From NCBI GenBank assembly GCA_963741965.1, contig CAVUKC010000001.1:602794-666793 (forward strand): a stretch of 64,000 bases of DNA, given 5' to 3'. Made by a program: the position numbers and the translations under genes. The notes under the pieces were generated by a model. It searched no databases, was not told where the DNA came from, and saw nothing but the letters and a program-made list of their open reading frames with translations. This DNA comes from an uncultured Chloroflexia bacterium. Lineage in GTDB: Bacteria > Chloroflexota > Chloroflexia > Thermomicrobiales > UBA6265. Below, one piece after another: positions 27,064-45,661 of this stretch; position 1 is the first letter of the stretch, and each line of letters opens with the position of its first letter.

Positions 27064-27072
27064 GGTGCTCGA

Positions 27073-28194
27073 TCAGCTGCCGCCCAGCCGCTCGAGCGCG
27101 CCGTCGACATAGGTTGTGTCGACCATGGTGGCCGGGTCGATGTCCTCGTCGTACTCAAGCAGGCCGCGGTCGCGGAAGAACGTCTGAAGCGTGGAAAGCG
27201 AATCGAGGTCGATCTTGCCGTCACCCTGATACACCGGCTTGACCGATTCGGCGACGAGCGTGGCCGGCACGCCGGTGTACTGCTCGATGATGGCGAGATT
27301 GACCGGATCGTTGAAGTTCTCGTTGAGGTCGCGGGACGCCTTGAGGTACGCCGTGACGAGCCCCGTGGCCGCCTCCGGGTTCTTCTCGATGAACTTGTTG
27401 CTGGCGAAGATCATGGTCGGCTGGTACTGCTGCACGTCGAAGTCCGGTGCGATGCGGACGGCGATGCCGTCGTTCTCCGCCTGGGTCGCCAGCGGCTCGC
27501 CGATGATGGAGGCGTCGATGGCGCCGCTGTCGAGCGCGGCGACCGCGTCGGGGAACGCCATGTACTGCAGGTCGATATCCTCGATTGTCAGACCATCCGT
27601 GCGCAGCGCCGCGTCGAGCCACAGCTCGGTTGCGCCGGGCGCGTTGACGGCCACCTTCTTGCCCTTGAGGTCGCTGATCCGGGTGATCTCGCCGCTCTCG
27701 CAGGCGTCCTTCGAGATCATCAGCGGCGATGCCACCGGCGAGCCCTCACCGTGGCCCGGCGCGATGATCGTCACCGGCAGGCCCTGCGCTACGGCATTCC
27801 AGTAGGCGGGGCCGATGCCGCCGAGGCCCGCGTCGAACTGCCCGGTCGCGGTGAGCGCGACCATGTCGGAGCCGCCGGGAAGCGCCTCCAGGGTGACATC
27901 GAGTCCCTCATCGGCGAAGTAGCCCTTCTCGTATGCGACGAACATCGGCGCGAAGATCGACACCGGCGTGTAGCCGATGGTCACCTTCACCGCGTCGTCC
28001 GGGACCTCGAAGTCGGGAATCTCGACATCCTCCGCAACCGGGGCGGACGGTGTTGCTTTCGGGATCGGCTCGCAGCTCAGACCCGACTGCGCGGCGGCGG
28101 GCGCCGCGCCGGTGAGGGGCACGAGCGCGAGGAGCAGAGCGACGAGCATCACGACGGGCACGCCATGGAACCGACGGGTACTGGCTCGGGACAT
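27073..28194 (-). CDS. ABC transporter substrate-binding protein (NMT1/THI5/SsuA-like)
   Basis: ATG 28194 gives 373 aa. Signal 'VVMLVALLLALVPLTGAAPAAAQ'. 'KVTIGYTPVSIFAPMFVAYEKGYF' is typical of NMT1/SsuA-type binding proteins. Confidence 0.8.
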   Translation of the reverse strand: MSRASTRRFHGVPVVMLVALLLALVPLTGAAPAAAQSGLSCEPIPKATPSAPVAEDVEIPDFEVPDDAVKVTIGYTPVSIFAPMFVAYEKGYFADEGLDVTLEALPGGSDMVALTATGQFDAGLGGIGPAYWNAVAQGLPVTIIAPGHGEGSPVASPLMISKDACESGEITRISDLKGKKVAVNAPGATELWLDAALRTDGLTIEDIDLQYMAFPDAVAALDSGAIDASIIGEPLATQAENDGIAVRIAPDFDVQQYQPTMIFASNKFIEKNPEAATGLVTAYLKASRDLNENFNDPVNLAIIEQYTGVPATLVAESVKPVYQGDGKIDLDSLSTLQTFFRDRGLLEYDEDIDPATMVDTTYVDGALERLGGS

Positions 28195-28370
28195 GGGCAC
28201 GTTCCTTGTGGGAAATGCTGGCGGGCTCGCCCGGGGGTGGGGAGCGCCGCGGCATTGCGGCATGCGGAACCGTTCGGCCCGCGTTCATTCTTCGTGAAGT
28301 ATACGATTGCGCCGGTTGTCTGGCCGGTACGCCTGACACGCGCGGGCTCTGGCCTATGGCAGGCGTTGAT

Positions 28371-28897: not shown

Positions 28898-29971
28898 TCA
28901 GTCGGCGGCGTCCGGAGCGACCCGGGTCAGCTGTCGCACGCCGAGAAGGTCAAGCTCCTCGGCGAAGTGGCAGGCGGCGTGGTGGCCGGGCCGAATCTCT
29001 CGCAGCGGCGGCTCATCGACCTTGCAACGGTCCTGCGCGTACTGGCAGCGCGGGTGGAAGTAGCACCCGGAGGGAGGGTTCACCGGGTCGGCGACCTCTC
29101 CCTGCGGCTTGATGCGCTTGCGGCGGTCCCGCAGGCGCGGGTCCGGCACCGGTACCGCCGACATCAATACCTCGGTGTAGGGGTGGAGCGGGTTGGCGAA
29201 CAGCTCGCGCGTCGGGGCAAGCTCAATGAGCTTCCCGACGTACATCACCGCGACGCGGTCGCAGATGTGTTCGATCACGCTGAGGTCGTGCGAGATGAAC
29301 AGGTACGTGAGGTCGAACTCCCGCTGCAGGTCGGAAAGCAGGTTCAGGATCTGGGCGCGCACGGAGACGTCCAGCGCGGACACGGCTTCGTCGAGCACGA
29401 CGAGGCGCGGGTCGAGCGCAAGGGCGCGGGCGATGCTGATGCGCTGTCGCTCGCCGCCGGAAAACGCGTGGGGGTACCGGCGCATGTACTCGGCGCGCAG
29501 GCCCACCTTCTTCAACAGCTCGGCGATGTGCCGCTCCTGCTCGCGAGACGAGCCGACCTTGAAGGCCTTGAGCGGCTCGCCGACCGTCTGCATCACGGTC
29601 ATGCGGGGGTTGAGCGAGGAGAATGGGTCCTGGAAGACCATCCGGATCTCCTTGCGGTACGGCTTCAGCTGCCGCTGGCTGAACTCCCGCAGGTCCACTG
29701 TCGAGCCGTCTTCCCTGATGTAGTTGATCGCGCCGCCGGTCGGCTCGATCGCCCGGACAATGCTGCGGCCGGTGGTTGTCTTGCCGCAGCCGCTCTCGCC
29801 GACGAGCCCGAGCGTTTCGCCGCGATAGATGGAAAAGGAGACGCCGTCAACCGCCTTGAGCGTCACCGCGGAACGCTTGAGGAAGCCGCCGCCGAGGGGG
29901 AAGTGGACCTGGAGCCGGTCGACCTCCAGCAGCGTCGGGCGAGGCGTCGAGGGTTCAGCTCGCTGTGCCAT
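28898..29971 (-). CDS. Opp/Dpp-type ABC transporter ATP-binding protein (OppF/DppF-like)
   Basis: 357 aa from ATG 29971. Walker A 'GESGCGKTT', 'FSGGERQRI'. The C-terminal Cys motif '[14 protein letters not shown]' is typical of the oligopeptide/dipeptide ATPase C-terminal domain. Confidence 0.9.
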
Positions 29972-31100
29972 CGGTCTCTCCGTGGGATGTCTCGAGCGGG
30001 TCGGGGTTCGCATGAATGTGCTGCGACTGCGGTGTGTCGAGATATTCCGGCTCGTACAGCAGACAGCGGACGTCGCGCCGGTAACCGAGATCGGTTCGTG
30101 GCGGGAGGACGCGGTCGCAGACGCCAGGTATCGCGAAATCGCAGCGGGTGTTGAACGGGCAGCCGTCTGGCCGGTTATAGGGGTCGGGCACCATGCCGCG
30201 GATCGAGTCCAGGCGCTCGCCAGTGGCCTCCCCGAGCCGCGGGATCGAGCGAAGCAGCGCTCGCGTGTACGGGTGCTTCGGCGCGTGGAAGATCTCGTCG
30301 ACGGTGCCGCGCTCGACCACGATGCCGAGGTACATCACCGCGACCTCGTCGGCAATCTCCGCGACGACGCCGAGGTCGTGCGTGATGAAGATCATCGCCA
30401 TGCCGAACTCGTCCTGCAGGCCCTGCATCAGCTCCAGGATTTGCGCCTGGGTGGTCACGTCGAGCGCGGTTGTCGGCTCGTCGGCGATGAGCAGCTGTGG
30501 GTTGTTGGAGAGCGCCATCGCGATCATCGCGCGCTGGCGGAGCCCGCCGCTGAGCTGGAAGGAGTAGCCGTCGAAGCGCTCCTCGGCGCGCGGCACCCCG
30601 ACCTTGCGCAGCATCTCGATCGAGTGCTGCCGGGCCTGCTCCTTGGACATCTTGTTGTGCAGGAGCACGTTCTCTGCGATCTGGCTGCCGATGGTGTGGA
30701 CCGGGCTGAACGAGGTCATCGGCTCCTGGAAGATCATCGAGATATCCTTGCCGCGGATGTCCCGGATCTGCGGTCCCGTCGGATTCAGCTTCGCGAGATC
30801 GACCGTCGAGACGGCGCCGGTCGCAAGGTCCCTGGGGTGGAAGAGCATCTCGCCCTCGATCACCTTGCCGGGCGGCTGGACGATTTGCAGGATCGATCGG
30901 GCGGTCATGCTCTTGCCGCAGCCGCTCTCCCCGACGATGCAGAGCGTCTTGCCCCGCTTGACGTCGAAGGTCGCGCCGTCGAGCGCCTTGACGGTGCCCT
31001 CGTCGAGCTTGAACCAGGTCTTCAGGCCGCGGACCTCGAGCAGCAGGTCCTCCTGCGCCGATGCCGCGGGAGCGGCGGTGTTGTGCGTGGCGGTCGCCAT
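29955..31100 (-). CDS. Opp/Dpp-type ABC transporter ATP-binding protein (OppD/DppD-like)
   Basis: 381 aa. 'GESGCGKSM', 'LSGGLRQRA', C-terminal '[15 protein letters not shown]'. Confidence 0.9.
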
Positions 31101-31114
31101 GAAACGTGCCTCCG

Positions 31115-32344
31115 TCAGCTTGCGTAGGGATCGGCGGCGTCGCGCAGGCCGTCACCGAGGAAGTTGAGCGAGATCACCGCGACGACCACCATCACGCCGG
31201 GCAGCAGCAGCCATGGCGCGGTGGAGACCGAGCGGATGTTCTGGGCCTCCTGGAGCAGCACGCCCCAGCTGTTGATGGGAGAGCGCAGCCCGAGGCCGAG
31301 GAAGCTGAGCGAGGTCTCGGCGAGGATCATGGCGGGGATCGCCAGCGTGATCGACGCGATGATGTGGCTGGTGAACGACGGCACCATGTGGCGCAGGATG
31401 ATGCGCATCTCGCCGGTGCCGTCCAGCCGGGCGGCGGTGACGAACTCCTCCTCGCGGAGGGAGAGGAAGCGTCCGCGTACAACGCGGGCGAGACCTGTCC
31501 AGCCGACGATGGAGAGAATGATGGTGATACCGAAGTAGACCTGGAGTGGCGACCAGGTCTTTGGCAGCGCGGCGGCAAGACCCATCCAGAGGGGAATGCC
31601 GGGGATGCTCCGCAGGAATTCGATGAAGCGCTGCACGAAGGTGTCGATCGCGCCGCCGAAGTACCCGGAGATGCCGCCGAGCACGATGCCGAGGATGAGA
31701 CTGATGAAGACGCCGAGCAGACCGAGTGTCATCGAGATGCGCGTACCGAGGATCATCCGGCTGAGCAGATCCTGACCGAGACGGTCGGCGCCGAGGGGAT
31801 AAAACGGCGTGCTGGGGTCGGTGGAGCCGAAGATATGCCGGTCCATCGGGATGAGGCCGAGGAGCTTGTACTCGTACCCCTTCACCCAGAACCCAACCGG
31901 GACGACCTTGTCCGTGTCGATCGTGAAGGTCTTGGCGAGGGTCTCCTTGTCGATCTCGGTCTTGTAGCCGTGGGTATAGAGGCCAACGACCCGCTCGCCG
32001 TCCTCCTCGCGCACGAAGTTGATGCCCTGGGGCGGCGCGTAGGTATAGGCGGCGTTGACATCGGTGGGGTCGTTCGGCGCGAGCATCTCGGCGAACGCGG
32101 CAACCAGGTAGAGCAGGATCACGATCACGAGCCCAGCCATCGCGAGCTTGTGGCGGCGGAACTTCCACCACATCAGCTTCCACTGGGAGGCGACGTAGAC
32201 GGTCTGCTCGGGCTGGCTCGTCTCCTCGGTGAGGTCCACCGCCTCCGGCACGCGATCCTGGACGGCGGTGCCATCGACATCGCTGTGCCCCAGCGGGGAC
32301 GCCCCCGGTTGCGCCTGCTCGATGCTCAGGTCCTCGTTACGCAT
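31115..32344 (-). CDS. Opp/Dpp-type ABC transporter permease (OppC/DppC-like)
   Basis: 409 aa with a long N-terminal/periplasmic extension. Its EAA loop contains 'AARLDGTGEMRIILRHMVP'. Confidence 0.85.
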   Translation of the reverse strand: MRNEDLSIEQAQPGASPLGHSDVDGTAVQDRVPEAVDLTEETSQPEQTVYVASQWKLMWWKFRRHKLAMAGLVIVILLYLVAAFAEMLAPNDPTDVNAAYTYAPPQGINFVREEDGERVVGLYTHGYKTEIDKETLAKTFTIDTDKVVPVGFWVKGYEYKLLGLIPMDRHIFGSTDPSTPFYPLGADRLGQDLLSRMILGTRISMTLGLLGVFISLILGIVLGGISGYFGGAIDTFVQRFIEFLRSIPGIPLWMGLAAALPKTWSPLQVYFGITIILSIVGWTGLARVVRGRFLSLREEEFVTAARLDGTGEMRIILRHMVPSFTSHIIASITLAIPAMILAETSLSFLGLGLRSPINSWGVLLQEAQNIRSVSTAPWLLLPGVMVVVAVISLNFLGDGLRDAADPYAS

Positions 32345-32395
32345 GTCTCACGCCTTTCGAAACGCTGGGAATCCTCATCGGCTCGGCCAGGAAGG

Positions 32396-33379
32396 TCAAT
32401 AGCGGATTCTGGGATCAAGCCATGCCAGCAGGATGTCCGAGAGCAGCGTGCCGATGACGGTGAGCACGCTGGTCAACAGGATCAGACTGCCAGCGAGGTA
32501 CATGTCCTGCGACTGCAAGGCGCGGAGCAGCAGCGGCCCGACGGTCGGCAGGCTGAGCACCACGCCGATGATCGCCTCGCCGGAGACCAGCGTCGGCAGG
32601 ATGAAACCCGAGGTGCTGACGAACGGGTTGAGCGCCATGCGGACCGGGTACTTGAGCAGAAGGGTGCGCTCGTCGAGCCCCTTGGCGCGAGCGGTGACGA
32701 CGTACGGCTTGTTGAGCTCATCCATGAGATTGGCGCGCATGATTCGCACGAGACCGGCGGTCGACGCGACGCCGACGATCACAATGGGGATCCAGAGATG
32801 CGCCATGAGGTCGGCGAACTTGTCGAAGCTCCAGGCTGCATCGACGTACTGCGGCGAGTAGAGCCCGCCGACGCTCTGATGGAAGTAGCGGAACGAGATG
32901 TAGAGCAGGATCAGGGCGATCATGAACTCGGGTATCGCCAGGCCGAGGAAGGCCATGAACGTGAGGACGTAGTCGCCGACGGTGTACTTTCGCACGGCGG
33001 AGTAGATGCCGAGCGGAAAGGCGATGGCCCAGGTGAGCAGGAGTGAGCCGACGGAGATGGCGATGGTGAATCCGATGCGGGAGCCGATGAGATCGGTCAC
33101 CGGGCGGTTGTATTCGAATGAGTCGCCGAAGTCGAAGTGAAGGATGATATTCCGCATCCAGTAGAAATACTGCACATACCATGGCTCGCCGAGCCCGTAG
33201 CGCTCCCGCAGCGCGACGAGCGCCTGCTGGTTCACCTGCTCGCCCTGGCTGCTCATCGCGGCGACCAGGGTGGTGAGGTAATCACCTGGCGGCAGCTGGA
33301 TGATGATGAACACCACGATGGAGATGGCGAAGACCGTGGGGATCATATACAGGGTGCGCCGAATGATGAAGGTGAACAT
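32396..33379 (-). CDS. Opp/Dpp-type ABC transporter permease (OppB/DppB-like)
   Basis: ATG 33379 (RBS AGGAG 8 nt upstream) gives 327 aa starting 'MFTFIIRRTLYMIPTVFAIS', the canonical OppB/DppB N-terminus. Confidence 0.85.
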   Translation of the reverse strand: MFTFIIRRTLYMIPTVFAISIVVFIIIQLPPGDYLTTLVAAMSSQGEQVNQQALVALRERYGLGEPWYVQYFYWMRNIILHFDFGDSFEYNRPVTDLIGSRIGFTIAISVGSLLLTWAIAFPLGIYSAVRKYTVGDYVLTFMAFLGLAIPEFMIALILLYISFRYFHQSVGGLYSPQYVDAAWSFDKFADLMAHLWIPIVIVGVASTAGLVRIMRANLMDELNKPYVVTARAKGLDERTLLLKYPVRMALNPFVSTSGFILPTLVSGEAIIGVVLSLPTVGPLLLRALQSQDMYLAGSLILLTSVLTVIGTLLSDILLAWLDPRIRY

Positions 33380-33673
33380 CAGCGGATCTCCTGGACGGAG
33401 CATGTCGGCCAGGCGGTGCTGTGGTGCGCTGGCTCGCCCGTGGGTTGTGTGAACGTCTCTACTGAAGCACATCGCTGGTGGCGTGTACAAGTGGCGCGGG
33501 TATCAGCCAGCTGGCTGACGGGCGTTCTGCGCGAAGGAAGCATCGCAGGAGGACTCCAAAATTCGGTCCGGATGCCGGACGTCCCGGACTCCGGCTGGCG
33601 GGAGCCACCAGTGAGGCGCTGCGAGACAGGATGATACGGATTGCGCTGCATCCGGCTGTGATGATCGTGCTGC

Positions 33674-33694
33674 TGAATCATATATGATATATGC
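33674..33694. promoter_or_regulatory. AT-rich palindromic operator candidate, site A
   Basis: 'TGAATCATATATGATATATGC' with a perfect 12-bp palindrome ATCATATATGAT at 33677-33688. It lies in the 412-bp spacer between the SBP and permease genes and shares its core with sites B, C and D. Confidence 0.6.
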
Positions 33695-33791: not shown

Positions 33792-35768
33792 CTACTCCTG
33801 CTGACCGCCCTCGTAGAAGTACGTCTCCGGATGCGACGGCGCCGGGTTCGGGTAGAGCCAGGCGCCCGGCATCGACGCGGGCACGTTCTTCATGTTGACC
33901 TTCTTGATGCCGTAGCCAATCGCCGGCAGGCTGATGCCGATCGCGTTGAAGTTCTCCTGTGCGATCGCGAGCAGCTCGTTGAAGAGCTCGTCCTGCTTGG
34001 CGGGGTCTGGCGTGGTCTCGATCTCAGCGTAGAGGTCCACCTGCTTCTGGATGCTTTCGGGCGGCTCCATCGCCTCCGTCTGCGGGTTGGCGCCGGCGTT
34101 GTTCGCCCAGACCACCCAGGCCTCGCCCCAGAGCGACTCGTCACTGTGCGGGTAGTACCAGCGGGCTTCGAGCATGGCGTCGTTGAGACCGCCGTCACCG
34201 CCCCAGACCGCACAGTCGTGCTCGTTGGCCGCCTTGCGGGTGTACATGAGCGAGCGATCCTCCGGCTTGAGGCTCGCGTTGACGCCGACCGCCTTCCAGT
34301 AGTCGATCACCAGGTTGGAGGCATCCGTCCAGAACGGATTGAGCTCGGCGGCGACCTCGACGACGAACGAGAACGGATCGCCGCTCGGCATCAGGCGCAT
34401 GCCGTCGCCGTCCTTGTCCGGCAGCACCTTGTCGAGAGCCTCGTTCGCCTTGTCGACGTCAAACTCGGTGAACTGTTTGGCCAGATCCTCGTTGTACCAG
34501 CGCGTCTCCTGGCGCGGGCAGAGCTGCCACGGCTCGCCCTGGCTCACGAACACGGCGTCGATGATCTCCTGGCGGTTGATCGCATAGGAGAGCCCGACGC
34601 GGAAGTCCTTGTTCTGGAAGATCTCCCGCATCGCCTCGTTCTTGTGCGTCTGGTTGATCGCGTACACGGTGGTGTTCATCGACGATGGCACGATATCGAA
34701 GAACTCGTAGCCGCCCTTCTCGCGGTTCTCGGCCAGCACCGGCTTGTTGGTGTCCGTCGTGATGTGCCGCGCGTGCATGTCGATCTCGCCGTTGGAGGCC
34801 CGCAGCAGCAGCACTTCCGGGTCCTCGAGCACGTCGAACACGACCTCGTCGATGTACGGCAGCTGCTGTCCCTGGGTATCGACCTTCCAGTAGTACGGGT
34901 TGCGCTCGAAGCGGACCCGCGTGCCCTCGCCGTACGGCTCCACCAGCTTCCAGGCGTGGAGGCGCGGCAGCTCGACGTTCGACCAGCGGGCATCGTACGG
35001 CGTGCCCGGGATGCCCGCGCCCTTCTTCCGGAAGAGCTCGACCCAGTCCTGCGCGCCCTCGTCCTTGATCATCTGGTCGAGGGTGTCAGTGTTGAAGTCC
35101 TTGTGGAACTGCTCGAGGTAGTGGCGTGGGTAGCGGGTCCATTCGACACCGGCCGCCTCGCACATGTGCTGCAGCGCGAAGCCGTTCGGGGTCTCGTAGG
35201 TGACCGTGAAGGTCTGGTCGTCGGCGACCTCGATCGAGAAGTTGATGTCCGGCGCTGCCGGGTTCAGCTCTTCGTTGTAGCGGACGCTGTTGACGTAGAA
35301 CTCGACGTCGGCCGAGGTGAACGGCTCGCCGTCGGACCACTTCATGCCCTTGCGCAGATGGAAGGTGAAGGCGGTGCCGTCGTCCGAGACCTCGACCGCC
35401 TTGGCGATGTCCGGAAGCACCTCGGACCAGTCGACCGACCATGTCACGAGGTTGTCGTAGTTGACGGTGCGCTCCAGCCAGGCGGTGTCCTGACCGCCGA
35501 TGAGCGCGGTGCGCCACGTGCCGCCATAGGTGCCGACGGAGTCGATCGGATCGAGCACCATCGGCTCTTCACCGATGCGCTCGGCCACCGGCGGCAGGTC
35601 CTGACCCTCGAGGAACGGGGACTGGCTGATCTCGGCGGGGACGGCCGGGGTTTGCGCGACAGCGTACCCGCCTCGGGCGCCGGCGGCAACGGTGAAGCCG
35701 ATGGCTCCGCTGACCTGCAGGAATCGCCGTCGGGAGTACGGCTGGCGGAACGGGGAAACCTTCGACAT
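33792..35768 (-). CDS. ABC transporter substrate-binding protein, family 5 (peptide/nickel/oligosaccharide type)
   Basis: ATG 35768 (RBS AAGGAGAG) gives 658 aa. Tat signal 'SRRRFLQVSGAIGFTVAAGA'. The tracked ORF start at 35927 is over-extended. Confidence 0.85.
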   Translation of the reverse strand: MSKVSPFRQPYSRRRFLQVSGAIGFTVAAGARGGYAVAQTPAVPAEISQSPFLEGQDLPPVAERIGEEPMVLDPIDSVGTYGGTWRTALIGGQDTAWLERTVNYDNLVTWSVDWSEVLPDIAKAVEVSDDGTAFTFHLRKGMKWSDGEPFTSADVEFYVNSVRYNEELNPAAPDINFSIEVADDQTFTVTYETPNGFALQHMCEAAGVEWTRYPRHYLEQFHKDFNTDTLDQMIKDEGAQDWVELFRKKGAGIPGTPYDARWSNVELPRLHAWKLVEPYGEGTRVRFERNPYYWKVDTQGQQLPYIDEVVFDVLEDPEVLLLRASNGEIDMHARHITTDTNKPVLAENREKGGYEFFDIVPSSMNTTVYAINQTHKNEAMREIFQNKDFRVGLSYAINRQEIIDAVFVSQGEPWQLCPRQETRWYNEDLAKQFTEFDVDKANEALDKVLPDKDGDGMRLMPSGDPFSFVVEVAAELNPFWTDASNLVIDYWKAVGVNASLKPEDRSLMYTRKAANEHDCAVWGGDGGLNDAMLEARWYYPHSDESLWGEAWVVWANNAGANPQTEAMEPPESIQKQVDLYAEIETTPDPAKQDELFNELLAIAQENFNAIGISLPAIGYGIKKVNMKNVPASMPGAWLYPNPAPSHPETYFYEGGQQE

Positions 35769-35925
35769 GGATGTCTCTCCTTGTGGGGTAACGACCTTCC
35801 GAGTCCCATCCATGCAGCGCGTCCGGTGCACGCAGGCACGAGGATGCATCTTCCCCGAAACCCTCCAGCACCCGGCATGGACCCGGGCTGGCGGTGCGTT
35901 CAAATGGCGTTCTGCACGTGCCGGC

Positions 35926-35945
35926 ATTCTATATCATATAGGAAC
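35926..35945. promoter_or_regulatory. AT-rich operator candidate, site B
   Basis: 'ATTCTATATCATATAGGAAC'. It shares 13 identical nt (TCTATATCATATA) with site D and lies ~160 nt upstream of the SBP ATG. Confidence 0.55.
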
Positions 35946-36121: not shown

Positions 36122-38014
36122 TCAGGCGTGGGCGCGTAGCGTCCAGCTGCCTTCCGCGGCCGGCTTCCGCAGGGTGAGCAACACCCGCGTGACGAAGTCG
36201 CCCCAGACCGGTGTCATCCGGCGGTCATCGATGTCGATGCGCTCGGTTTCGACGTCCCATCGGTCGGCGTCGTAATCGACGAGCAGGTCGCGCTTCGGGC
36301 CGGCGAGCCGGAGCTGTCCCGCGATGGACGTATCGACGTCGCTTGCCGCCATGAGGGTGAGCACGATGCTGTCGGGCTTGTGGCCAAGCTTCCAGGTGTC
36401 CTCCAGCAGGACAGCGGCATCCGTCCCGCGCTCGAGGCGGACGGTGCGGTCCCATCGTTCGATGCCTGCGGCGGCGTCCCATGCGCCCGCGATGTCGAGC
36501 CGGAGCTCGGCGCGATCGTCTGCCAGGTCGGCCCGCACGTCCCGCGCCTGGTACTCCGAGCCGGGTGACTGCTGGTGCCCATCGACCGTCGGCAGGTTGT
36601 GGTACGCGCTCTGCATCGTCCAGATCTCGTATCGCTGCGAGCTGAAGGTCTTCCTCGTGTACTCCTCGACGCCCGCATCGATCAGGACTGGCTGGCCGTC
36701 GAGCCCGACGATGAAGCTGCCGATGTCGTTGTGGTTGTGGCTCTCGCCGTTGTTGCCACCCTTGGCCGCAACGAAGAGTCCGTCCGATGTCCCCTCGGTT
36801 TCGCGCGCGGTGAGCACCTGGATGCCATCCAGCCAGCTCTGCCGGATCAGCGGGTATGGCGGAATCGGGTCTGGCTGCGGCACCGGCCGGAAGTACGTGT
36901 TGAGGAAGCGGTTGAACGACCGGAACTCGGCGTTCTCCGGCGTCACGTCCGCCTGCGACGCGATCGCGTGTTGCATGAGCCTGTCGTCCCCGATCTTCTC
37001 GCCGAAGTGGTAGACGATGTTCGGGTCCGGGATGGTCTTCGCGGTGCCGTCGGCGAAGTTGACGTACCAGTCGCCGCCGATGTGGGCGCGCAGGACGTAG
37101 CGCGCCATCTCCTGGATGAGCGACTCATCCCAGATGGCGATTGCGCCGTTCGAGGCGGTATCGAGCACATGGAGGCACTCGTAAACGCTCGCACCGGCGC
37201 GACCCCAGTAGGAGATCCCCTCGTCGCAGCCGCCGTCGCTGTGGTAGCCGCCGAGGAACTCGTCGAGACCGCGCAGGGCACGGTGGATCGCCTGGGCGCG
37301 TTGCTCGACGTCGTCCTCGATCAGCATCTCGAGCGCGAGCAGGTTGCTGATGATCCAGGGGTTCCAGTTGTTCGGCGGACCCTTGTGTCCTTCGTCGCGG
37401 ACGAACCCGAGCCACCACCACTCGTCGCGCTCCATGAACGGATCCAGCAGGCGGGTCCGGATCTCGTGGCGCATGCGAGCCGTGACGATGGGATCGACCC
37501 CGTCCAGCTTCTCGCCGACGAGGTAGTGGGTGTAGCCGATCACGGCGCCGGTTTCGGCTGAGAAGAGGGCGACGACAGGGTTGGTGACGTCCGGCAGCGG
37601 GTGGTTGCGATCCCACGACGACCGGGTGAAATAGCGGTTGTGGGCGGGGACGTCCCAGAAGCTCTCCTCGCAGATCGCCCAGACGCCATTGACGATATCG
37701 TCGACGAAGCGGCCCTGGTTTTCGACGCACTCGGCGGCGACGAGGCGGATGAGCATCTTGCGGCGGTCGTAGGACGCTGCCTGGTAGCGCGAGCGGTTGC
37801 CGTCGCGCTGGAACTCCATGAAGAGTGTTGCCTTGAGCTCGGGCCACGACGTGCCGAGCAGCGGCTCGGCGTCCGCGACGAGCGCCCGCCTCTGCTCCTC
37901 GGGCAGTCCGTCCCATGCTTGCCGGTCGGAGATCGCGGGGTAGGGCCGCCACTCCCCGGGCGGTACGAGATCGCGACGAATCTGGTCGATCGGGAATCGT
38001 TCTGCGAGCTTCAT
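36122..38014 (-). CDS. heparinase II/III-like family protein (polysaccharide-lyase fold), no signal peptide
   Basis: 630 aa from ATG 38014 (RBS GGGAG 5 nt upstream). The alternative ATG at 38095 lies inside operator site C and has no RBS. Typical N-terminal toroid pattern 'GNRSRYQAASYDRRKML...VWAICEESFWDVPAHN' and C-terminal 'GNNGESHNHNDIGSFIV'. Confidence 0.75.
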   Translation of the reverse strand: MKLAERFPIDQIRRDLVPPGEWRPYPAISDRQAWDGLPEEQRRALVADAEPLLGTSWPELKATLFMEFQRDGNRSRYQAASYDRRKMLIRLVAAECVENQGRFVDDIVNGVWAICEESFWDVPAHNRYFTRSSWDRNHPLPDVTNPVVALFSAETGAVIGYTHYLVGEKLDGVDPIVTARMRHEIRTRLLDPFMERDEWWWLGFVRDEGHKGPPNNWNPWIISNLLALEMLIEDDVEQRAQAIHRALRGLDEFLGGYHSDGGCDEGISYWGRAGASVYECLHVLDTASNGAIAIWDESLIQEMARYVLRAHIGGDWYVNFADGTAKTIPDPNIVYHFGEKIGDDRLMQHAIASQADVTPENAEFRSFNRFLNTYFRPVPQPDPIPPYPLIRQSWLDGIQVLTARETEGTSDGLFVAAKGGNNGESHNHNDIGSFIVGLDGQPVLIDAGVEEYTRKTFSSQRYEIWTMQSAYHNLPTVDGHQQSPGSEYQARDVRADLADDRAELRLDIAGAWDAAAGIERWDRTVRLERGTDAAVLLEDTWKLGHKPDSIVLTLMAASDVDTSIAGQLRLAGPKRDLLVDYDADRWDVETERIDIDDRRMTPVWGDFVTRVLLTLRKPAAEGSWTLRAHA

Positions 38015-38085: not shown

Positions 38086-38104
38086 CGTACATCATATATT
38101 TTCG
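38086..38104. promoter_or_regulatory. AT-rich operator candidate, site C (half-site)
   Basis: 'CGTACATCATATATTTTCG' contains the core ATCATATAT. It lies ~75 nt upstream of the heparinase-like ATG at 38014. Confidence 0.45.
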
Positions 38105-38182: not shown

Positions 38183-40070
38183 CTATACGGGTGGAATGCG
38201 CAGTGTCCGGCCGCGCCAGGCGATCTCGACGCGGCCATCCTCTCCCCATGTCACCGACGGTTGGTCGTTCAGTCGGTCGTGCAGCGAGCGTTCGCGCACC
38301 TGGCGGGATGTGCCGAGGAAGACCGTTGAAAGCGCGACGTCACCGGGCCGCAGCTCCCCGGTGAGATAGGGGATCACATTGCTGCTATGCACCACGTTGC
38401 CGGCCCCGCCGTCGGCGAAGGAGCGTGGCAGGTGCGGTCTCCTGATCGTGTCCCAGGAGCGCATAGCCACGGCATGCTCGTTCGAGGTGCCACCGCTGAT
38501 GCGCGTTTCCGGGTCGCACACCAGCTGCGGCGTGTCGCCATGGTCGAAGCCGAGCGCGGCCGCGCCCTCCAGCGTCGTGAGCGGACCGTTGGCGCTGCTT
38601 TCCACGAGGCGATGCACGCGCAGGTGAAGGTCGCCATCAGGCACCACGATGGTGTCGAACAGCGCCTGGGTGCCCGCGACCTCGTGACGGTGCCGATAGC
38701 GGATCCAGCCGTCGTCGTGAATGACAGCCGACTCGTTACCAGTCCGGTGGGAGACGTAGCCGTCGATGTGGATTGCGATCATCGCGTCCGGCGTCGGCGC
38801 GCCATCGCCGAGTCCAGCGTTGTACGGTGCCGCGGTGGAGTAGGCGAGCTTGGCGTACTTCGCGTGGGTGTGCGCGGTGTGCATCGTGAAGCGGTGGATC
38901 TCGCCGGACTCATGGGTGCCGCTCAGGATCCAGCCCGGCTGGGTGAAGACCTTGTGCACGTCGCCTTGGTCGATCGGCAAAGGCTCGGGCTCGCAGGTCC
39001 AGAATGGATCATCGTCGCGGAGACGCCACAGCCCGCCGAACGCCTGCATCGCCCAGTACGGCGCGCCGGTGGAGATGTACGTCTCCCGGATCGCCTCGCT
39101 TCCGGTGGACGTGAGCGCCTGTCGCAGCGAGCCGTCCGCGCGCACCGCGCCATGGCGCAGGTACCAGCCGATATGGCGCTCGACGATGGTGCGGAGCAAT
39201 CCCGGTGAGTGCGGCCAGGCGCCGTGACGGTAGGCCCAGAGCAGTGCGCCGAGACGGGCGAACTTGTACGCGCCGCTGCGTCCGTATTCCGGCCAGGCGC
39301 CGTCTGCCGCGAAGAAGAGCGGCACGTGCCGCATCTGCGCGCGCACCCGCTCCAGCAGCTCTGCGGCGCGGCGTGCGTTCCGGCCGCCATCGATATCGAT
39401 CCAGGCGAGCACGTGCGATGAGAAGACCCACAGGTTGTAGTCGTCGAAGTGGTTGGTGCCGATCGCCGCGCCGTCGTCGTACCAGCCGTCGCCGCAGTAG
39501 ACACCGTCGAGGTAGCGTCCCATCACGTCGTCGACGATGTCCTGGTCGAACGGGAGCTCGAGCGCCTGCCGCGCGGCGTGGTTGACGGCCCAGAACAGCG
39601 CCCAGTTGTTGCGCCAGCGCTGCTCCGGCGGCTGGCCACAGGCGATCAGCCAGTCGGCGATCTGCCGTCGTTCAGCCGGCTCGAGGGTATTCCAGATACG
39701 ATCTCGGGTCAGCCAGAGCGCATAGGCGACCTGGCCGGATTCGACGGTCGGCTGGGCGAGGCCGGTGCTCACCGGGTCGCCCCAGTAGGCGGGCCGTGCG
39801 GGCGGTGCCGGCAAGGAGCGCCCGCCGCGTGAGCGCCTCGAGGTCGTAGCCGCGGCCTCGCCAGGCGAGCGTGCCCGGACGCTCGGGATCCGAGAGCCAG
39901 CCGCCAAGCCCCCACATCATGCGCGTGGTGCCTTCGTAGGAGCCATTCGGCTCGGCGTGGTTGCGAATGCCGTCGATGAGCAGGTTGGCGCCGGCGGCGT
40001 CGAGGTGGTTCGCCCAGCCGGCGACGAGCATCGACCAGGTGTCGGTCATGCTGCGCTGAAAATCGGTCAC
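38183..40070 (-). pseudogene. DUF2264 family protein, interrupted by a +1 frame change near 39790-39805
   Basis: ORF 39672..40070 encodes the N-terminus ('SYEGTTRMMWGLGGWL...LTRRALLAGTA'). ORF 38183..39907 continues in the +1 frame ('PAYWGDPVSTGLAQPTVESGQVAYALW...'). The total span is 1888 nt (3n+1). The family call is from memory of the DUF2264 pattern (EGFAR..WG ... hPeYWG ... Q..VE). Confidence 0.6.
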
Positions 40071-40100: not shown

Positions 40101-40123
40101 AATCTATATCATATATGATAGTC
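40101..40123. promoter_or_regulatory. AT-rich palindromic operator candidate, site D (divergent control region)
   Basis: 'AATCTATATCATATATGATAGTC' with a perfect 14-bp palindrome TATCATATATGATA at 40107-40120. It lies 37 nt from the DUF2264 ATG (40070) and 61 nt from the GntR GTG (40181). Confidence 0.65.
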
Positions 40124-40180: not shown

Positions 40181-40855
40181 GTGTTGCACCTGGATCAGCC
40201 GAAGGGGCAGGCGTACCGTACCAAGACCGAGCTGGTCCATGCCACGTTGCGCTCCGCGATCATGCGCTGCGAGCTCCAGCCAGGCGCTCGCCTGATCATC
40301 GACGACATTTCGGAGTCGCTCGGTGTCAGCCACATCCCCGTGCGCGAGGCGCTGAACAAGCTGCAGTCCGAGGGGCTCGTCTCGGTGATTCCGCACAGCG
40401 GCGCCACCGTTGCGCCGGTCTCGCCGGGAGATGTCGCGGAGATCTTCTCGATCATGGAAGGACTGGAGATCGTCGCCACGCGGCTTGCCGCGGAGCGGGC
40501 GTCAGAGGAGGACCTCGCCGCGCTGGCGGCGTTGCTCGATCCCATGGACAGGGCTGTGGCCGAGCAGGAGCTGGAAACCTGGGCGGAGCTCAACATCGAG
40601 TTCCACCGCGCGATATCCGCGATCACCGGCATGCCCATGCTGGGCGAGATGATGAACCGGGTGCTCGATCGCTGGGACCGCGTGCGCCGCTATGTGCGCG
40701 TGCTGCCCACCCGCATGGCGGAGGCACAGCAACAGCACCACGACATCGTGCGGGCGCTGCAGCGCCACGATGTCGCCACCGCCCAGGCGCTGGCGACCTT
40801 GCACAATCGCGGGGCGCTGGGAGCGTACCAGTCGCGCCTCGACGCTGACGAGTAG
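40181..40855 (+). CDS. GntR family transcriptional regulator (FadR-like, FCD-type C-terminal domain)
   Basis: Winged HTH 'ISESLGVSHIPVREALNKLQSEGLV' with an all-helical C-terminal domain. GTG 40181 is preceded by AAGAGGA. The tracked ATG at 40115 lies inside the palindrome and lacks an RBS. Confidence 0.85.
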   Translation: MLHLDQPKGQAYRTKTELVHATLRSAIMRCELQPGARLIIDDISESLGVSHIPVREALNKLQSEGLVSVIPHSGATVAPVSPGDVAEIFSIMEGLEIVATRLAAERASEEDLAALAALLDPMDRAVAEQELETWAELNIEFHRAISAITGMPMLGEMMNRVLDRWDRVRRYVRVLPTRMAEAQQQHHDIVRALQRHDVATAQALATLHNRGALGAYQSRLDADE

Positions 40856-40916: not shown

Positions 40917-42080
40917 ATGGCGGAGCATCGCGTAGGCATCATCATGAACGGCGTGACTGGGCGCATGGGCACGAACCAGCACCTCGTGCGGTCCATCCTC
41001 GCCATCCGCGAGCAGGGTGGAGTGAAGGTCGACGACCACACCAGCATCATGCCGGATCCAATCCTGGTCGGACGCAACGAGGACAAGCTGCGGAAGCTGG
41101 CCTCAGCGCACGGTGTCGAGCGCTGGACCACGGATCTGGACGCCGCGCTGGCGAACCCGGACGACATCCTCTACTTCGACTCCCAGCAGACGCTGCGACG
41201 AGCCGACAGCATCAAGCGCGCCATTGCCGCCGGCAAGCACATCTACTGCGAGAAGCCGACAGCAACGAGCACCGAGACCGCGCTGGAGCTTGCCAGGATC
41301 GCGCGCGACGCCGGGGTGAAGAATGGCGTGGTGCAGGACAAGCTCTTCCTGCCGGGGCTGATGAAGCTCAAGCGGCTGATCGACGGCGGCTTCTTCGGCC
41401 GCATCCTCTCCGTGCGCGGCGAGTTCGGCTACTGGGTGTTCGAGGGCGACTGGCAGCCGGCGCAGCGGCCGAGCTGGAACTACCGCAAGGAAGACGGCGG
41501 CGGCATCATGGTCGACATGCTCTGCCACTGGCGCTATGTCCTCGACAACACGTTCGGGCCGGTCAAGTCGGTCAGCACGCTCGGCGCGATCCACATCCCC
41601 GAGCGGGTGGATGAGAACGGCCAACCCTATGCCGCCACGGCCGACGACGCCGCGTACTCCAACTTCATCGTCGGCGACGACATCATCGTCAACATCAACT
41701 CGTCGTGGGCGACGCGCGTCTATCGCGATGAGCTCTTCGTGCTCCAGGTGGACGGGACCGAGGGCAGCGCGATAGCCGGTCTGCGGGAGTGCAAGGTCCA
41801 GCACCGTGCCGTCACGCCGAAACCGGTCTGGAACCCGGACGTGCCGAACCCGTTCAATTTCTACGACGACTGGCAGGACGTGCCCGACAACCAGGTGTTC
41901 GAGAACGCGTTCAAGGTGCAGTGGGAGATGTTCCTCCGCCACATCGTCTGCGATGACCCGCACCCGTTCGACCTGCTCGCGGGCGCGAAGGGCATCCAGC
42001 TCGCCGAGCTTGGGCTGAGGTCGTGGGAAGAGCGGCGCTGGCTCGACGTGCCGGATCTCACCGCCCAGCTGGAAGGATAG
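40917..42080 (+). CDS. Gfo/Idh/MocA family oxidoreductase
   Basis: 387 aa from ATG 40917. 'RVGIIMNGVTGRMG' Rossmann motif and 'GKHIYCEKPTA' motif. Confidence 0.85.
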   Translation: MAEHRVGIIMNGVTGRMGTNQHLVRSILAIREQGGVKVDDHTSIMPDPILVGRNEDKLRKLASAHGVERWTTDLDAALANPDDILYFDSQQTLRRADSIKRAIAAGKHIYCEKPTATSTETALELARIARDAGVKNGVVQDKLFLPGLMKLKRLIDGGFFGRILSVRGEFGYWVFEGDWQPAQRPSWNYRKEDGGGIMVDMLCHWRYVLDNTFGPVKSVSTLGAIHIPERVDENGQPYAATADDAAYSNFIVGDDIIVNINSSWATRVYRDELFVLQVDGTEGSAIAGLRECKVQHRAVTPKPVWNPDVPNPFNFYDDWQDVPDNQVFENAFKVQWEMFLRHIVCDDPHPFDLLAGAKGIQLAELGLRSWEERRWLDVPDLTAQLEG

Positions 42081-42085
42081 GCACC

Positions 42086-43261
42086 ATGGCGATCACCGGC
42101 ACCTCCCTCCGCCTCCCGACCGCATCGGGAGCCGTGGAGACCTACCAGCCGCGTCCGGGCGCCGATCCTGGTGTCGGGTTCAGCGAGCCGCGCACTCGCG
42201 TTGCGTTTGCCGCCTGCCACGTCGTGCCGGATGCGATGGCCGACATCAACCCGACACTTGATGTCGCGCTCGACTGGGACGCGACGATGGCCTACCGACG
42301 CTACCTCTGGTCGCTCGGGCTCGGCGTCGCTGAGGCGATGGACACCGCGCAGCGCGGCATGGGGCTCGACTGGGAGACATCGAAGGAGCTGATCCGCCGC
42401 TCGGTCGAGGAGTCGAAGGCCACCGGCGGTCGGCTCGCCTCTGGCGCCGGCACCGATCACCTCGCGCCGTCACCGGAGCTTTCCGTCGACGACGTGATCG
42501 CGGCGTACGAGGAGCAATGCGGCTACGTCGAGGGCGTCGGCGGGCGCATCATCCTCATGGCCAGCCGGGCACTGGCGGCATGCGCGAAGGGGCCCGAGGA
42601 CTACGCAACTGTCTACGGTCGCATCCTCTCGCAGGTCAGGGAGCCGGTGATCATTCACTGGCTCGGCGACATGTTCGACCCCGCGCTTGCGGGCTACTGG
42701 GGAAGCGACGAGATCGACGCGGCGATGGACACGGCCGTCGCGATCATCACAGAGCACGCCGACAAGGTCGACGGCGTCAAGGTCTCGCTGCTGGACGCCC
42801 AGCGGGAGATCGACATGCGCCGCCGCCTGCCCGAGGGCGTGCGGATGTACACCGGCGACGATTTCAACTACCCATCGCTGATCCGGGGCGACGAGCAGGG
42901 CCACTCCGACGCGCTGCTCGGCATCTTCGACGCGATCGCACCGGTCGCGGGAGCCGCCTTCGCCGCGCTCGATGCCGGTGACCTGGACCGCTACGACGAG
43001 CTGTTCGCGCCGACGGTGCCGCTCTCTCGCCACATCTTCTCGGCGCCGACGCGGTTCTACAAGACCGGCGTGGTATTCCTCGCATGGCTCAACGGGCACC
43101 AGGACCACTTCCGCATGGTGAACGGGCAGGAGAGCTGCCGTTCCGTGGTGCATCTCGCGCAGCTCTTCCGGCTCGCCGACGAGGCGCGGCTGTTCACGGA
43201 CACCGATCGAGTGACGGCGCGGATGCGGGCGTTTCTCGAAGTGGCGGGGGTGCCGCAATGA
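42086..43261 (+). CDS. DUF993 family protein (uncharacterised)
   Basis: 391 aa from ATG 42086 (RBS GGAAGGA), starting 5 nt after the previous stop. The family call is from memory of DUF993 proteins that accompany Gfo/Idh/MocA and TIM-barrel isomerase genes. Confidence 0.6.
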   Translation: MAITGTSLRLPTASGAVETYQPRPGADPGVGFSEPRTRVAFAACHVVPDAMADINPTLDVALDWDATMAYRRYLWSLGLGVAEAMDTAQRGMGLDWETSKELIRRSVEESKATGGRLASGAGTDHLAPSPELSVDDVIAAYEEQCGYVEGVGGRIILMASRALAACAKGPEDYATVYGRILSQVREPVIIHWLGDMFDPALAGYWGSDEIDAAMDTAVAIITEHADKVDGVKVSLLDAQREIDMRRRLPEGVRMYTGDDFNYPSLIRGDEQGHSDALLGIFDAIAPVAGAAFAALDAGDLDRYDELFAPTVPLSRHIFSAPTRFYKTGVVFLAWLNGHQDHFRMVNGQESCRSVVHLAQLFRLADEARLFTDTDRVTARMRAFLEVAGVPQ

Positions 43262-44079
43262 CCGAGGGCGATTTCTCCCGGCTCAGCTTCAACCAGAAGA
43301 CGCTCGACCAGTGGGACATGCGGCAGGCGATCGAGGGCTGTGCGCGCCATGAGATCCCGTGGATCGCGCCGTGGCGCGACAAGATCGCGGAGATCGGTCT
43401 GGACGAGACCGCAAAGCTGATCCGCGACGCCGGACTCAAGGTGTCGAGCCTCTGCCGGGGCGGGTTCTTTCCCGCGCCGACCACCGAGGAGCAAAAGGCG
43501 GCGATCGAGGACAACCGCTGCGCGATTCACGAGGCCGCCACACTCGGCACGGACGTGCTGGTGATGGTCAACGGCGGCATGAACGGCTGCCGCATCCAGG
43601 ACGCGCGAGACATGGTGCGCGACGGCATCGAGGCGATCCTGCCGTACGCCGAGGAGCGCGGTGTGAAGATCGGCATCGAGCCGCTGCATCCGGCGTTCGC
43701 GGCGGACCGCGCCGTGACCGCCTCCCTGGAGGAGGCGAACGACCTCGCCGAGCACTTCGGCTCGCCGTGGGTCGGGGTCGTGATCGACATCTACCACGTC
43801 TGGTGGGACGCGCACGTTCACCGGGAGATCAAGCGGGCGGCACCGTATACCCTGGGGTTCCACGTCAACGACTGGCTGGTGCCGAACACGAACGTGCTGG
43901 TCGGCCGCGGCATGATGGGCGACGGCGTCGTCGACAATCGCGAGCTGCGCGAGTGGGTCGATGCCGAGGGCTACAACGGGCCGATCGAGGTGGAGATCTT
44001 CAACGAGGAGATCTGGCAGCGCGACGGTGATGAGGTGCTTGAGGAGATGAAGGCGCGGTACGTCTCGCACGTCTTGTAG
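43258..44079 (+). CDS. sugar phosphate isomerase/epimerase (xylose-isomerase-like TIM barrel)
   Basis: 273 aa. The ATG overlaps the DUF993 stop (ATGA). 'GTDVLVMVNGG', 'IGIEPLHP' and 'GFHVNDW' are typical of AP-endonuclease-2/xylose-isomerase-like TIM barrels. Confidence 0.8.
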   Translation: MTEGDFSRLSFNQKTLDQWDMRQAIEGCARHEIPWIAPWRDKIAEIGLDETAKLIRDAGLKVSSLCRGGFFPAPTTEEQKAAIEDNRCAIHEAATLGTDVLVMVNGGMNGCRIQDARDMVRDGIEAILPYAEERGVKIGIEPLHPAFAADRAVTASLEEANDLAEHFGSPWVGVVIDIYHVWWDAHVHREIKRAAPYTLGFHVNDWLVPNTNVLVGRGMMGDGVVDNRELREWVDAEGYNGPIEVEIFNEEIWQRDGDEVLEEMKARYVSHVL

Positions 44080-44215: not shown

Positions 44216-45661
44216 CTACGACGCGCTTTCTCGCACGTCATCCAACACCTCGAAGATGACCTCGACGTCGTCCTCTGTCGTCATCCAGTTGTCGAACGCG
44301 AATCGCATCGCCGCCTTGCCGTCCCACACGGTGGTACTGGCGTAGACGCGACCGTCTGCCTGCAGCGCCGCCAGCAATTTCCGGTTGCGGCGGTCGTGTT
44401 CGTCAACGTCCCAGCCGGGATCGGTGTAGCGCAGGCAGACGACCATGAACGGCGAATCGCGCATGCGCTCGGCGTTCATCACCTCGAGCCACGGCTGCTT
44501 GTCGGCCCACTGGCTGAGCCTGAGGGCGTTCGCGAGACACCGGTCGATCAGCTCGCGGTATCCCTCGCGACCGAGGCTCCGCAGCGCGCACCAGGCGGGG
44601 ATTGCCCGCGCGCGTCGCGACATCTCCGGCGAGAAGTCATCGGCGTCCCAGCCGCCAGAACCGGCGAGATAGGCAGCGCCTGTCGTGGCGAACGCGCCTC
44701 GGACCGCCGCCTCGTCTCGCACGAACGCGAATCCGGAATCGTAGGGGACATTGAGCCACTTGTGGGCGTCGGCGCAGACGGAGTCTGCTCGCTCGATGCC
44801 CCGGACGCGGTCGCGGTGATCGCTGGACGCCGCCGCGAACAGTCCGAAGGCGGCGTCGACGTGCATCCACGCACCGCCGGGGTGCGAGGCGCACAGGTCG
44901 GCGGTGGCGTCGAGATCGTCGAACTGGCCCGTGTTGACCTCCCCGGCGTTCGCCACGACGATCACCGGTCCGTCGATATCCGCAAGCGCGGCCCGCAGCG
45001 CCTCGATGTCCGCAATTCCGCCGGGGGCGGGCACCGTCCGGACCGACTTGCGGCCGAAGCCAAGGTTGCCGAGCGCCTTGCGCGCGCTGGCGTGGATCGC
45101 CTCGCTGGAGACAACGGGGATGATCGGATGACCGCCGAGCCCGTCCTCCGCCGCGTTGAAGCCGAGCCGCTCCGACGCCCACTGTCGTGCCGCGGCGAGA
45201 CCGACAAGGTTGCTCATCGTCGCGCCGCTGGTCATCACGCCGTGCCACTCGGTTGGTAGCGAGAACAGCTCCTTCAGCCAGCGGATGACGGTGAGCTCCG
45301 TCTGCGCCGATGCCGGGCTCATGGACCAGATGCCGCCATTCTGGTCGATTGTGGAGGTGACCACGTCGCCGGCCAGCGCGCCGGGCAGCGTCCCGCCGGT
45401 GACGAACCCGAAATAGCGAGGTCCGTTGGTAGAGACGATGCCGGGTCGAGCTCGCTGCAGCCACTCCGCGACCGCCTCGCCTGGGTCGGAGCCGTGCTCG
45501 GGCAGCGGCTCGTCGAGAAGGTTCTTCATCTGCTCGGGTGTGGCGCCGGCGGTGATCGGTCGCTCGGGGAGGGCGGTGAGCCAGTCGTCTGCCAGCGCGA
45601 CGGCGCGGCGAAGCGCTTCGCGGGCAGGTAGGCTGCGGTTGTCTGTGGCTGATGTGCTCAT
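44216..45661 (-). CDS. pyridoxal-dependent decarboxylase (group II, aromatic-amino-acid/DABA decarboxylase-like)
   Basis: 481 aa from ATG 45661 (RBS CAGGAGG). PLP-lysine motif 'DAHKWLNVPYDSG' and 'TSGATMSNL'. Confidence 0.8.
   Translation of the reverse strand: MSTSATDNRSLPAREALRRAVALADDWLTALPERPITAGATPEQMKNLLDEPLPEHGSDPGEAVAEWLQRARPGIVSTNGPRYFGFVTGGTLPGALAGDVVTSTIDQNGGIWSMSPASAQTELTVIRWLKELFSLPTEWHGVMTSGATMSNLVGLAAARQWASERLGFNAAEDGLGGHPIIPVVSSEAIHASARKALGNLGFGRKSVRTVPAPGGIADIEALRAALADIDGPVIVVANAGEVNTGQFDDLDATADLCASHPGGAWMHVDAAFGLFAAASSDHRDRVRGIERADSVCADAHKWLNVPYDSGFAFVRDEAAVRGAFATTGAAYLAGSGGWDADDFSPEMSRRARAIPAWCALRSLGREGYRELIDRCLANALRLSQWADKQPWLEVMNAERMRDSPFMVVCLRYTDPGWDVDEHDRRNRKLLAALQADGRVYASTTVWDGKAAMRFAFDNWMTTEDDVEVIFEVLDDVRESAS

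Follow-up and report, generated by a model that had tools for sequence, protein, structure and literature searches.

Among the described systems closest to the genes treated here are pathways that degrade sugar acids. In the glucarate/galactarate route of Escherichia coli (GarL, GarR and GarK) and the oxidative uronate route of Agrobacterium (Udh, Gci and KdgD), a keto-deoxy acid is cleaved without a kinase. The aldolases of the non-phosphorylative Entner-Doudoroff pathways and the fungal 2-keto-3-deoxy-L-galactonate aldolase belong to the DHDPS/NAL family. In the chondroitin pathway of Bacteroides caccae PUL25 (PMC12269599), BcPL35, BcGDH and BcGH88 are followed by KduI, KduD, KdgK and KdgA. 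Here we analysed a 64,000-nt stretch of an uncultured Chloroflexia bacterium (contig CAVUKC010000001.1; the whole stretch is called the window), which carries a three-gene module, the triad, encoding a Gfo/Idh/MocA oxidoreductase (Gfo), a DUF993 protein and an AP_endonuc_2 barrel. The triad is a real, conserved and widespread catabolic module with no published function that we could find; it resembles the known kinase-free keto-deoxy acid routes and is a member of no named pathway. What is new is a substrate link: a putative regulon and genomic co-occurrence with a uronate dehydratase point to an undescribed route for uronic-acid breakdown. With about even confidence, the triad is read as the lower part of a regulon for the catabolism of uronic acids, in which an unsaturated or keto-deoxy uronate would be converted, without a kinase, to pyruvate and a C3 unit.

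The triad and the regulatory gene preceding it are arranged as follows.

40917..42080, + strand, Gfo/Idh/MocA oxidoreductase (387 aa; Pfam GFO_IDH_MocA families)
42086..43261, + strand, DUF993 protein (391 aa; PF06187)
43258..44079, + strand, AP_endonuc_2 metal-dependent barrel (273 aa; Pfam AP_endonuc_2, E 5e-41)
40181..40855, + strand, GntR/FCD repressor, probable first gene of the operon, with a probable GTG start behind an AAGAGGA site

As an earlier sequence-only reading had described, the three open reading frames are packed behind the gntR gene, with a 5-nt gap between Gfo and DUF993 and an ATGA overlap of DUF993 and the barrel at 43258-43261. These junctions were confirmed; the translational coupling claimed in the same reading is predicted from them. 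The Gfo start lies 61 nt behind the gntR stop (40855), and no terminator-like site was found in the intergenic stretch. The assignment of the middle protein to DUF993 held, with a PF06187 profile match over 382/382 positions (E 6e-185; 615 bits vs a cut-off of 24), and its nearest named relatives were Thermomicrobiales. None of the NCBIfam models reached its cut-off for Gfo, DUF993 or the barrel.

Conservation was assessed in the 80 best DUF993 loci, which came from Proteobacteria, Bacillota, Chloroflexota, Actinomycetota, Acidobacteriota and other groups. Gfo was present in 74 of them and the barrel in 71, and both partners were found in 63 of the 70 loci with enough flanking sequence. A strict contiguity filter was passed by 58 loci; two more (L012 and L033) missed it through alignment ends only, so that the genes are contiguous and in the same order in 60/70. 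The co-occurrence statistics that the sequence-only reading had called for thus establish that the three families are co-conserved. DUF993 itself comprises at least 8000 clusters at 90% identity and is patchily distributed, being found in 6/60 relatives, 17/300 in the host phylum and 41/170 in an alphaproteobacterial family.

Structural-genomics relatives exist for all three proteins (3OQB for Gfo, 4DNH for DUF993, and 3QC0 and 7VPF for the barrel), and no function assignment was found for them. In Sinorhizobium meliloti, SMc04132 (4DNH) and SMc04130 (3JU2/3QC0) are, like 3OQB and 7VPF, close orthologues, and the gene order is the same. The S. meliloti locus differs in its regulator, which is TetR, in its importer, a sugar ABC system, and in the enolase-family gene inserted into it. 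The literature search for DUF993, PF06187, 4DNH and the SMc0412x-0413x genes found no function, returning only a proteomics table and a network paper; it gave nothing useful on 7VPF or on a KduI-independent uronate route.

Some loci have a different setting. In L095 and the P0020 contig, close DUF993 relatives (~80%) occur on their own, next to a luciferase-like gene and with neither Gfo nor barrel. Six alphaproteobacterial loci (L018, L028, L046, L059, L073 and L075) carry a second DHDPS-family gene, an NAD-dependent epimerase gene and a GNAT gene beside DUF993. In other Thermomicrobiales (L045 and L098), DUF6807, cupin and second Gfo genes flank the triad; in the window genome these three sit away from it, at G000 C2:2229227-2231920, without an operator.

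DUF993 matched 4DNH (E 7e-153), the sole match in a sequence-profile search of the PDB. Because the sequence profile reached 4DNH only, the link to DHDPS became visible by structure comparison. The predicted structure (pLDDT 92) matched 4DNH and then the DHDPS/NAL family only (Z 24-30, root-mean-square deviation 2.4-3.3 over 270-300 residues), with the next folds at Z <=16. Keto-deoxy sugar-acid aldolases and dehydratases were among the tied structural matches; comparison with the Atlas provided leads only (0.84-0.86). The structure prediction and fold search proposed by the sequence-only reading thus yielded a DHDPS/NAL-superfamily barrel with C-terminal helices.

In a weak profile alignment (E 0.048), K232 corresponds to the Schiff-base lysine on strand 6, H191 to the usual catalytic Tyr on strand 5, and G257-D258-D259 to the sugar-binding motif. 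K232 and H191 were present in 145/145 DUF993 loci, D86 and T87 in every locus covering them; the strand-5 catalytic Tyr of the DHDPS/NAL family is accordingly absent, being His in 145/145. The GxxGE/S keto-acid loop motif is also missing, and M85-D86-T87-A88-Q89 stands there by strand register, outside the profile alignment. We infer that a His/Asp pair replaces the Tyr/Thr relay. DUF993 is therefore modelled as a DHDPS/NAL-superfamily barrel with K232 as its Schiff-base lysine and with predicted aldolase/dehydratase-class chemistry; if true, it would be a new catalytic variant among class I aldolases. The earlier statement that DUF993 has no assigned activity stands insofar as no characterised orthologue was found, but fold and lysine do supply clues.

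Compared with the non-phosphorylative Entner-Doudoroff aldolases, DUF993 has the same fold (YagE, 2V8Z, Z 29.9; archaeal 2-keto-3-deoxygluconate aldolases, Z 26-27), the Schiff-base lysine and, in several loci, a glycerate kinase close by. It differs in its low identity (12-17%), ~90 extra residues, His for Tyr, the replaced GxxGE loop and a fixed partnership with Gfo and an IolI-like barrel. The GarL- and Udh-type routes are alike in the proposed kinase-free cleavage, in the enolase-family partner found in proteobacterial triad loci and in the fold of KdgD (4UR7, Z 25.5). However, no triad protein is orthologous to their enzymes, and the enolase-family partner has no solved relative by sequence.

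A second DUF993 group (~53% identical) has identical active-site residues and is usually accompanied by a related barrel, with a short-chain dehydrogenase/reductase (SDR) instead of Gfo. Its operons (L138, L139, L141, L143 and L179) include genes for CoA transferase, enoyl-CoA hydratase, acyl-CoA dehydrogenase, GMC oxidase, aldehyde dehydrogenase and glycerate kinase. Identification of the SDR as KduD was rejected (120 bits vs 339). Since one active site occurs in two contexts, DUF993 seems to act on a shared intermediate derived from more than one compound, and this group must be accounted for by any final model. On a Streptomyces yangpuensis plasmid (L142:9998-21185), a divergent DUF993 gene (Q89, R161, D259 and other residues changed) directly precedes genes for an FAD monooxygenase and a type I polyketide synthase, an arrangement that suggests a role in biosynthesis.

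The Gfo is closest to 3OQB (E 1e-166), and characterised enzymes matched it at E 1e-15 or weaker, including scyllo-inositol/L-glucose dehydrogenase (E 3e-15), levoglucosan dehydrogenase and DgpA. The EKP lysine K113, D200 and H204 are invariant. After strand 2 there is no conserved acidic residue, and G52-R53 is invariant; in this family, an invariant Gly-Arg in place of the conserved acid suggests NADP(H) as the cofactor. In one locus (L161), transhydrogenase genes lie directly 3' of the triad.

The barrel has a Glu-Asp-His-Glu metal site (E141, D177, H202 and E244) together with H180 and R217, whose roles we take to be those of their counterparts in D-tagatose 3-epimerase. E141, D177, H180, R217 and E244 were conserved in 40/40 sequences and H202 in 39/40. 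Its nearest characterised relative is the inosose isomerase IolI (profile E 1e-20, the next at 8e-12; structure Z 27.8), at an identity of only ~20% and with no IolI model among those listed. Other keto-isomerases and epimerases follow IolI in the structural ranking, and glycoside eliminases and hydratases come at Z 20-22. The models of IolO, UlaE, Hyi and OtnI all scored far below cut-off, and by these scores the barrel is orthologous to none of them.

These relationships bear on two other substrates. The sequence-only reading had likened the Gfo-barrel pair to 3-keto-glycoside, levoglucosan and C-glycoside pathways, and a Gfo gene beside an AP_endonuc_2 barrel is indeed what the triad shares with levoglucosan catabolism, DgpABC and the Alistipes/Bacteroides AL1-type lyases; levoglucosan dehydrogenase and DgpA are also among the weak Gfo matches. 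However, the Gfo reached 55.9 bits with the levoglucosan dehydrogenase model (LevoglcsnDh), far under its cut-off of 650, and the BT_2158 and BT_2159 models did not match it at E 1e-3 (another Gfo does match them). AL1-, DgpB- and AtHYD-type eliminases and hydratases share the fold of the barrel (Z 20.5-22) but rank below the isomerases and are absent from its profile matches. The Gfo falls outside those families, and the barrel appears to do so; DUF993 is without a counterpart there, a Schiff-base keto-acid enzyme has no place in such pathways, and the neighbouring genes are acid-handling. The analogy was not supported, and oxidation of a neutral glycoside to its 3-keto form followed by elimination (levoglucosan, C-glycoside or BT2156-2159 type) is extremely improbable. 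A cyclitol or cyclitol carboxylate, which Gfo would oxidise to an inosose before the IolI-like barrel moved the keto group and DUF993 opened the ring, would suit the nearest characterised relatives of both enzymes. Nevertheless, both matches are remote, the genome has a separate iolG-iolB-iolD cluster, and uronate enzymes rather than inositol genes recur around the triad, which makes such a substrate very unlikely.

The uronate reading draws on the genes transcribed divergently from the gntR-triad operon.

38183..40070, - strand, DUF2264/GH154 uronate 4,5-dehydratase homologue, matching BcGDH, frameshifted near 39803
36122..38014, - strand, PL33-like polysaccharide lyase, Hepar_II_III (8R6Z, E 2.5e-118)
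33792..35927, - strand, family-5 solute-binding protein, sharing 40% identity with the binding proteins of DUF2264 operons in alphaproteobacteria
28898..33490, - strand, Opp-type ABC importer with two permeases and two ATPases

BcGDH dehydrates terminal glucuronate to the delta-4,5 form (PMC12269599). Equivalents of its residues E74, R78, N176, N177, W178, F181, Y229, R285 and Y289 are present in the window gene across two frames, and the catalytic residues are intact in the orthologues of L092 and L097. The frameshift, judged relative to an intact orthologue, is likely an assembly indel error, although this is unproven. Gene loss was rejected as its explanation because similar breaks affect ispG (gcpE; window 46701), iolB (G000 C2:2328345) and the DUF6807 gene (G000 C2:2229895) in the same assembly. 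In the lyase, N243, Y296, H453 and Y479 (numbered for the reading frame from 38095) correspond to the reference residues N238, Y291, H444 and Y470 of BtPL33 (PMC11848413), and the two-domain length fits PL33. By analogy with known homologues, these two families would yield delta-4,5-unsaturated uronate ends and, from them, 5-keto-4-deoxyuronate (DKI).

A lyase plus a GH154-type dehydratase making delta-4,5 ends, with catalytic residues kept, is what the locus shares with B. caccae PUL25. Unlike that system, the window genome (3.38 Mb, 94% complete) has no GH88/105, kduI or UxaC that could be found, the sole KduI-family match being iolB; its lyase is PL33-like, and the triad stands in the regulon instead. 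Elsewhere, this genome carries a KDPG-type aldolase, UxuA-family genes and a probable glycerate kinase.

Both operons share a putative operator, with the following copies (no strand assigned).

40108..40119, putative GntR operator, a perfect 12-bp palindrome between the two divergent operons
33677..33688, second exact copy, upstream of the permeases
38091..38102, degenerate copy with 2 mismatches, upstream of the lyase, with a copy in the same place in L092 and L097
35933..35944, degenerate copy with 2 mismatches, upstream of the solute-binding protein, also in L092

The palindrome at 40108 is invariant in three genomes (window, L092 and L094). Only two exact copies, at 40108 and 33677, occur in the 3.38 Mb genome, both inside the island, and five palindrome matches were seen vs 0.28 expected in shuffles. 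L092 and G032 have similar sites at corresponding positions. We infer that GntR binds this palindrome; a single putative regulator would then tie the importer, lyase and dehydratase to gntR-Gfo-DUF993-barrel. The whole island recurs in another genus (G032), with lyase, dehydratase and binding protein at 48-56% identity, and the dehydratase is also near the triad in G037, Ornithinibacillus gellani, Meridianimarinicoccus, G725 and G730. The link to neighbouring lyase-fold genes suggested by the sequence-only reading is thus strengthened by the putative shared operator and by genome co-occurrence, but it is not universal, DUF2264 being found in 1/80 of the first loci within the fetched flank. A 1-mismatch palindrome at 53371 was rejected as an operator because it appears to fall within a gene. 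A NitT/TauT (NMT1-type) ABC importer at 25424-28263 was rejected as an island member for lack of an operator copy. A PLP-dependent decarboxylase gene at 44216-45658, also without an operator, flanks the island.

In the O. gellani family (Bacillota), DUF993 was present in 37/42 dehydratase-positive vs 4/38 dehydratase-negative genomes (17/22 vs 4/37 once the largest handle block was taken out). When genomes were compared at the same dehydratase status, GH88/105 had no effect on DUF993 (19/22 with vs 18/20 without it among positive genomes; 1/5 vs 3/33 among negative ones). In the Meridianimarinicoccus family, DUF993 occurred in 3/3 positive vs 38/167 negative genomes, and in the host phylum in 1/3 dehydratase genomes, the remaining two carrying GH88-family genes. 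In a hand-picked set used for KduI, 15 of the 16 dehydratase-positive genomes tested that lack GH88/105 and KduI carried DUF993. A general tie of DUF993 to GH88/105 (4/19) and its strict replacement of KduI were rejected; as KduI and DUF993 coexist in 18/36 genomes, DUF993 is no simple KduI replacement. Around DUF993, a glycerate kinase gene was found in six loci of two phyla (L001, L138, L143, L161, L179 and L184), carboxylate-type importers (TTT and TRAP) recur, and an enolase-superfamily gene was present in 34/80 loci.

DKI is a 2-keto-3-deoxy acid and so falls within the substrate class of DHDPS/NAL enzymes. Cleavage to pyruvate and a C3 unit is proposed because the upstream products open to DKI and glycerate kinase recurs near DUF993. 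Acting through a Schiff base at Lys232, with His191 and Asp86 as the acid-base pair, DUF993 would break a 2-keto-3-deoxy acid between C3 and C4; Gfo would set the redox level with NADP(H), the barrel would shift the keto group through an ene-diol, and the C3 product would pass to glycerate kinase. Proteobacteria would reach the same intermediate by way of an enolase-superfamily dehydratase. The order we prefer, although unlikely when taken alone, has the barrel as KduI analogue, Gfo as KduD analogue and DUF993 as a non-phosphorylative keto-deoxy-gluconate-type aldolase giving glyceraldehyde. In a second, rather unlikely order, Gfo would oxidise C1 to give 5-keto-4-deoxyglucarate, DUF993 would release tartronate semialdehyde, and the barrel would act like hydroxypyruvate isomerase.

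Several points weigh against this reading. DUF993 carriers without the dehydratase are common (38/41 in the Meridianimarinicoccus family and 16/17 in the host phylum), GH88/105 genomes are not enriched for DUF993, and coexistence with KduI is frequent. The genomes are related and not independent, so p-values overstate, and a saccharolytic way of life is a further confounding factor. Of the three alphaproteobacterial genomes that are positive, one (G365) carries DUF993 in its CoA context instead of the triad. The window dehydratase is frameshifted in the assembly; the keto-acid loop of DUF993 is without the GxxGE motif, and its residue equivalences come from a weak profile alignment and strand register, not from distances. 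Finally, the model does not explain release of the unsaturated uronate without GH88/105, which could come about by the dehydratase acting on free uronate, by the lyase from the chain end, or by the triad itself.

There are two further alternatives. In the first, the triad acts on a different small sugar acid that the same food supplies, and the lyase and dehydratase are co-regulated with it while their product goes elsewhere. The many carriers without the dehydratase in two samples, the highly varied importers, the extra Gfo, enolase and barrel genes and the coexistence with KduI all suit this view. We hold it to be unlikely; it leaves the lyase and dehydratase products without a known route in 15 genomes and the window genome, and DUF993 is associated specifically with the dehydratase rather than with GH88/105. 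In the second, the triad replaces GH88/105: Gfo would oxidise the allylic C3-OH of a delta-4,5-uronide, the aglycone would be eliminated to leave a hydroxypyranone carboxylate (comenic acid), and barrel and DUF993 would hydrate, open and cleave it to pyruvate and tartronate semialdehyde. This would account for the dehydratase-positive genomes without GH88/105 (DUF993 in 18/20), and the GMC oxidase, aldehyde dehydrogenase, CoA transferase and enoyl-CoA hydratase around the second DUF993 group might suit a pyranone acid. However, the barrel groups with isomerases, not eliminases, and no paper was found on bacterial genes for comenic-acid catabolism. In G578, moreover, the triad is directly followed by a GH88-family gene, which suggests that the two act in succession instead of one substituting for the other and favours a downstream role of the triad. 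We regard this replacement as unlikely too, if anything more so.

Under the uronate reading, it is also conceivable, if doubtful, that the triad is a widespread pathway in which delta-4,5-unsaturated uronates are both released and cleaved with no need of GH88/105, KduI or a kinase. DUF993 would then be a new His/Asp-type Schiff-base lyase, possibly acting via a pyranone or a 2,4-diketo acid, and free or 4-O-methyl glucuronate might gain a new point of entry through the GH154 dehydratase.

Crystal structures exist for DUF993, a large family for which no function was found and which is carried by about a quarter of one alphaproteobacterial family. GH154 was recently shown to be a uronate dehydratase and is said to pair with GH88/105, but many genomes have the dehydratase without GH88/105 or KduI, and DUF993 is present in almost every such genome tested. 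Through the regulon link and this co-occurrence, the function of DUF993 becomes directly testable. If true, the proposal would add a route by which soil bacteria and rhizobia break down uronic acids from the polysaccharides of plants and microbes.

Other gene arrangements were observed around the dehydratase and the triad. On a Halomicrobium plasmid (L159), DUF2264 occurs with GH88, Gfo, an FAH-family hydrolase, DUF362 and glycerate kinase, and the window genome has a homologue (42%, C1:99862) of this DUF362. In L160, L174, L175, L176, L185 and L051, DUF2264 recurs in a cassette with a 2-hydroxyacid dehydrogenase and a second AP_endonuc_2 barrel, often accompanied by a family-5 importer and lacking GH88; this cassette could be another route for unsaturated uronides. 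In some Bacillota (L181, L183 and L011), alpha-glucuronidase genes (GH67 and GH115) lie near the triad, making 4-O-methylglucuronate a candidate substrate.

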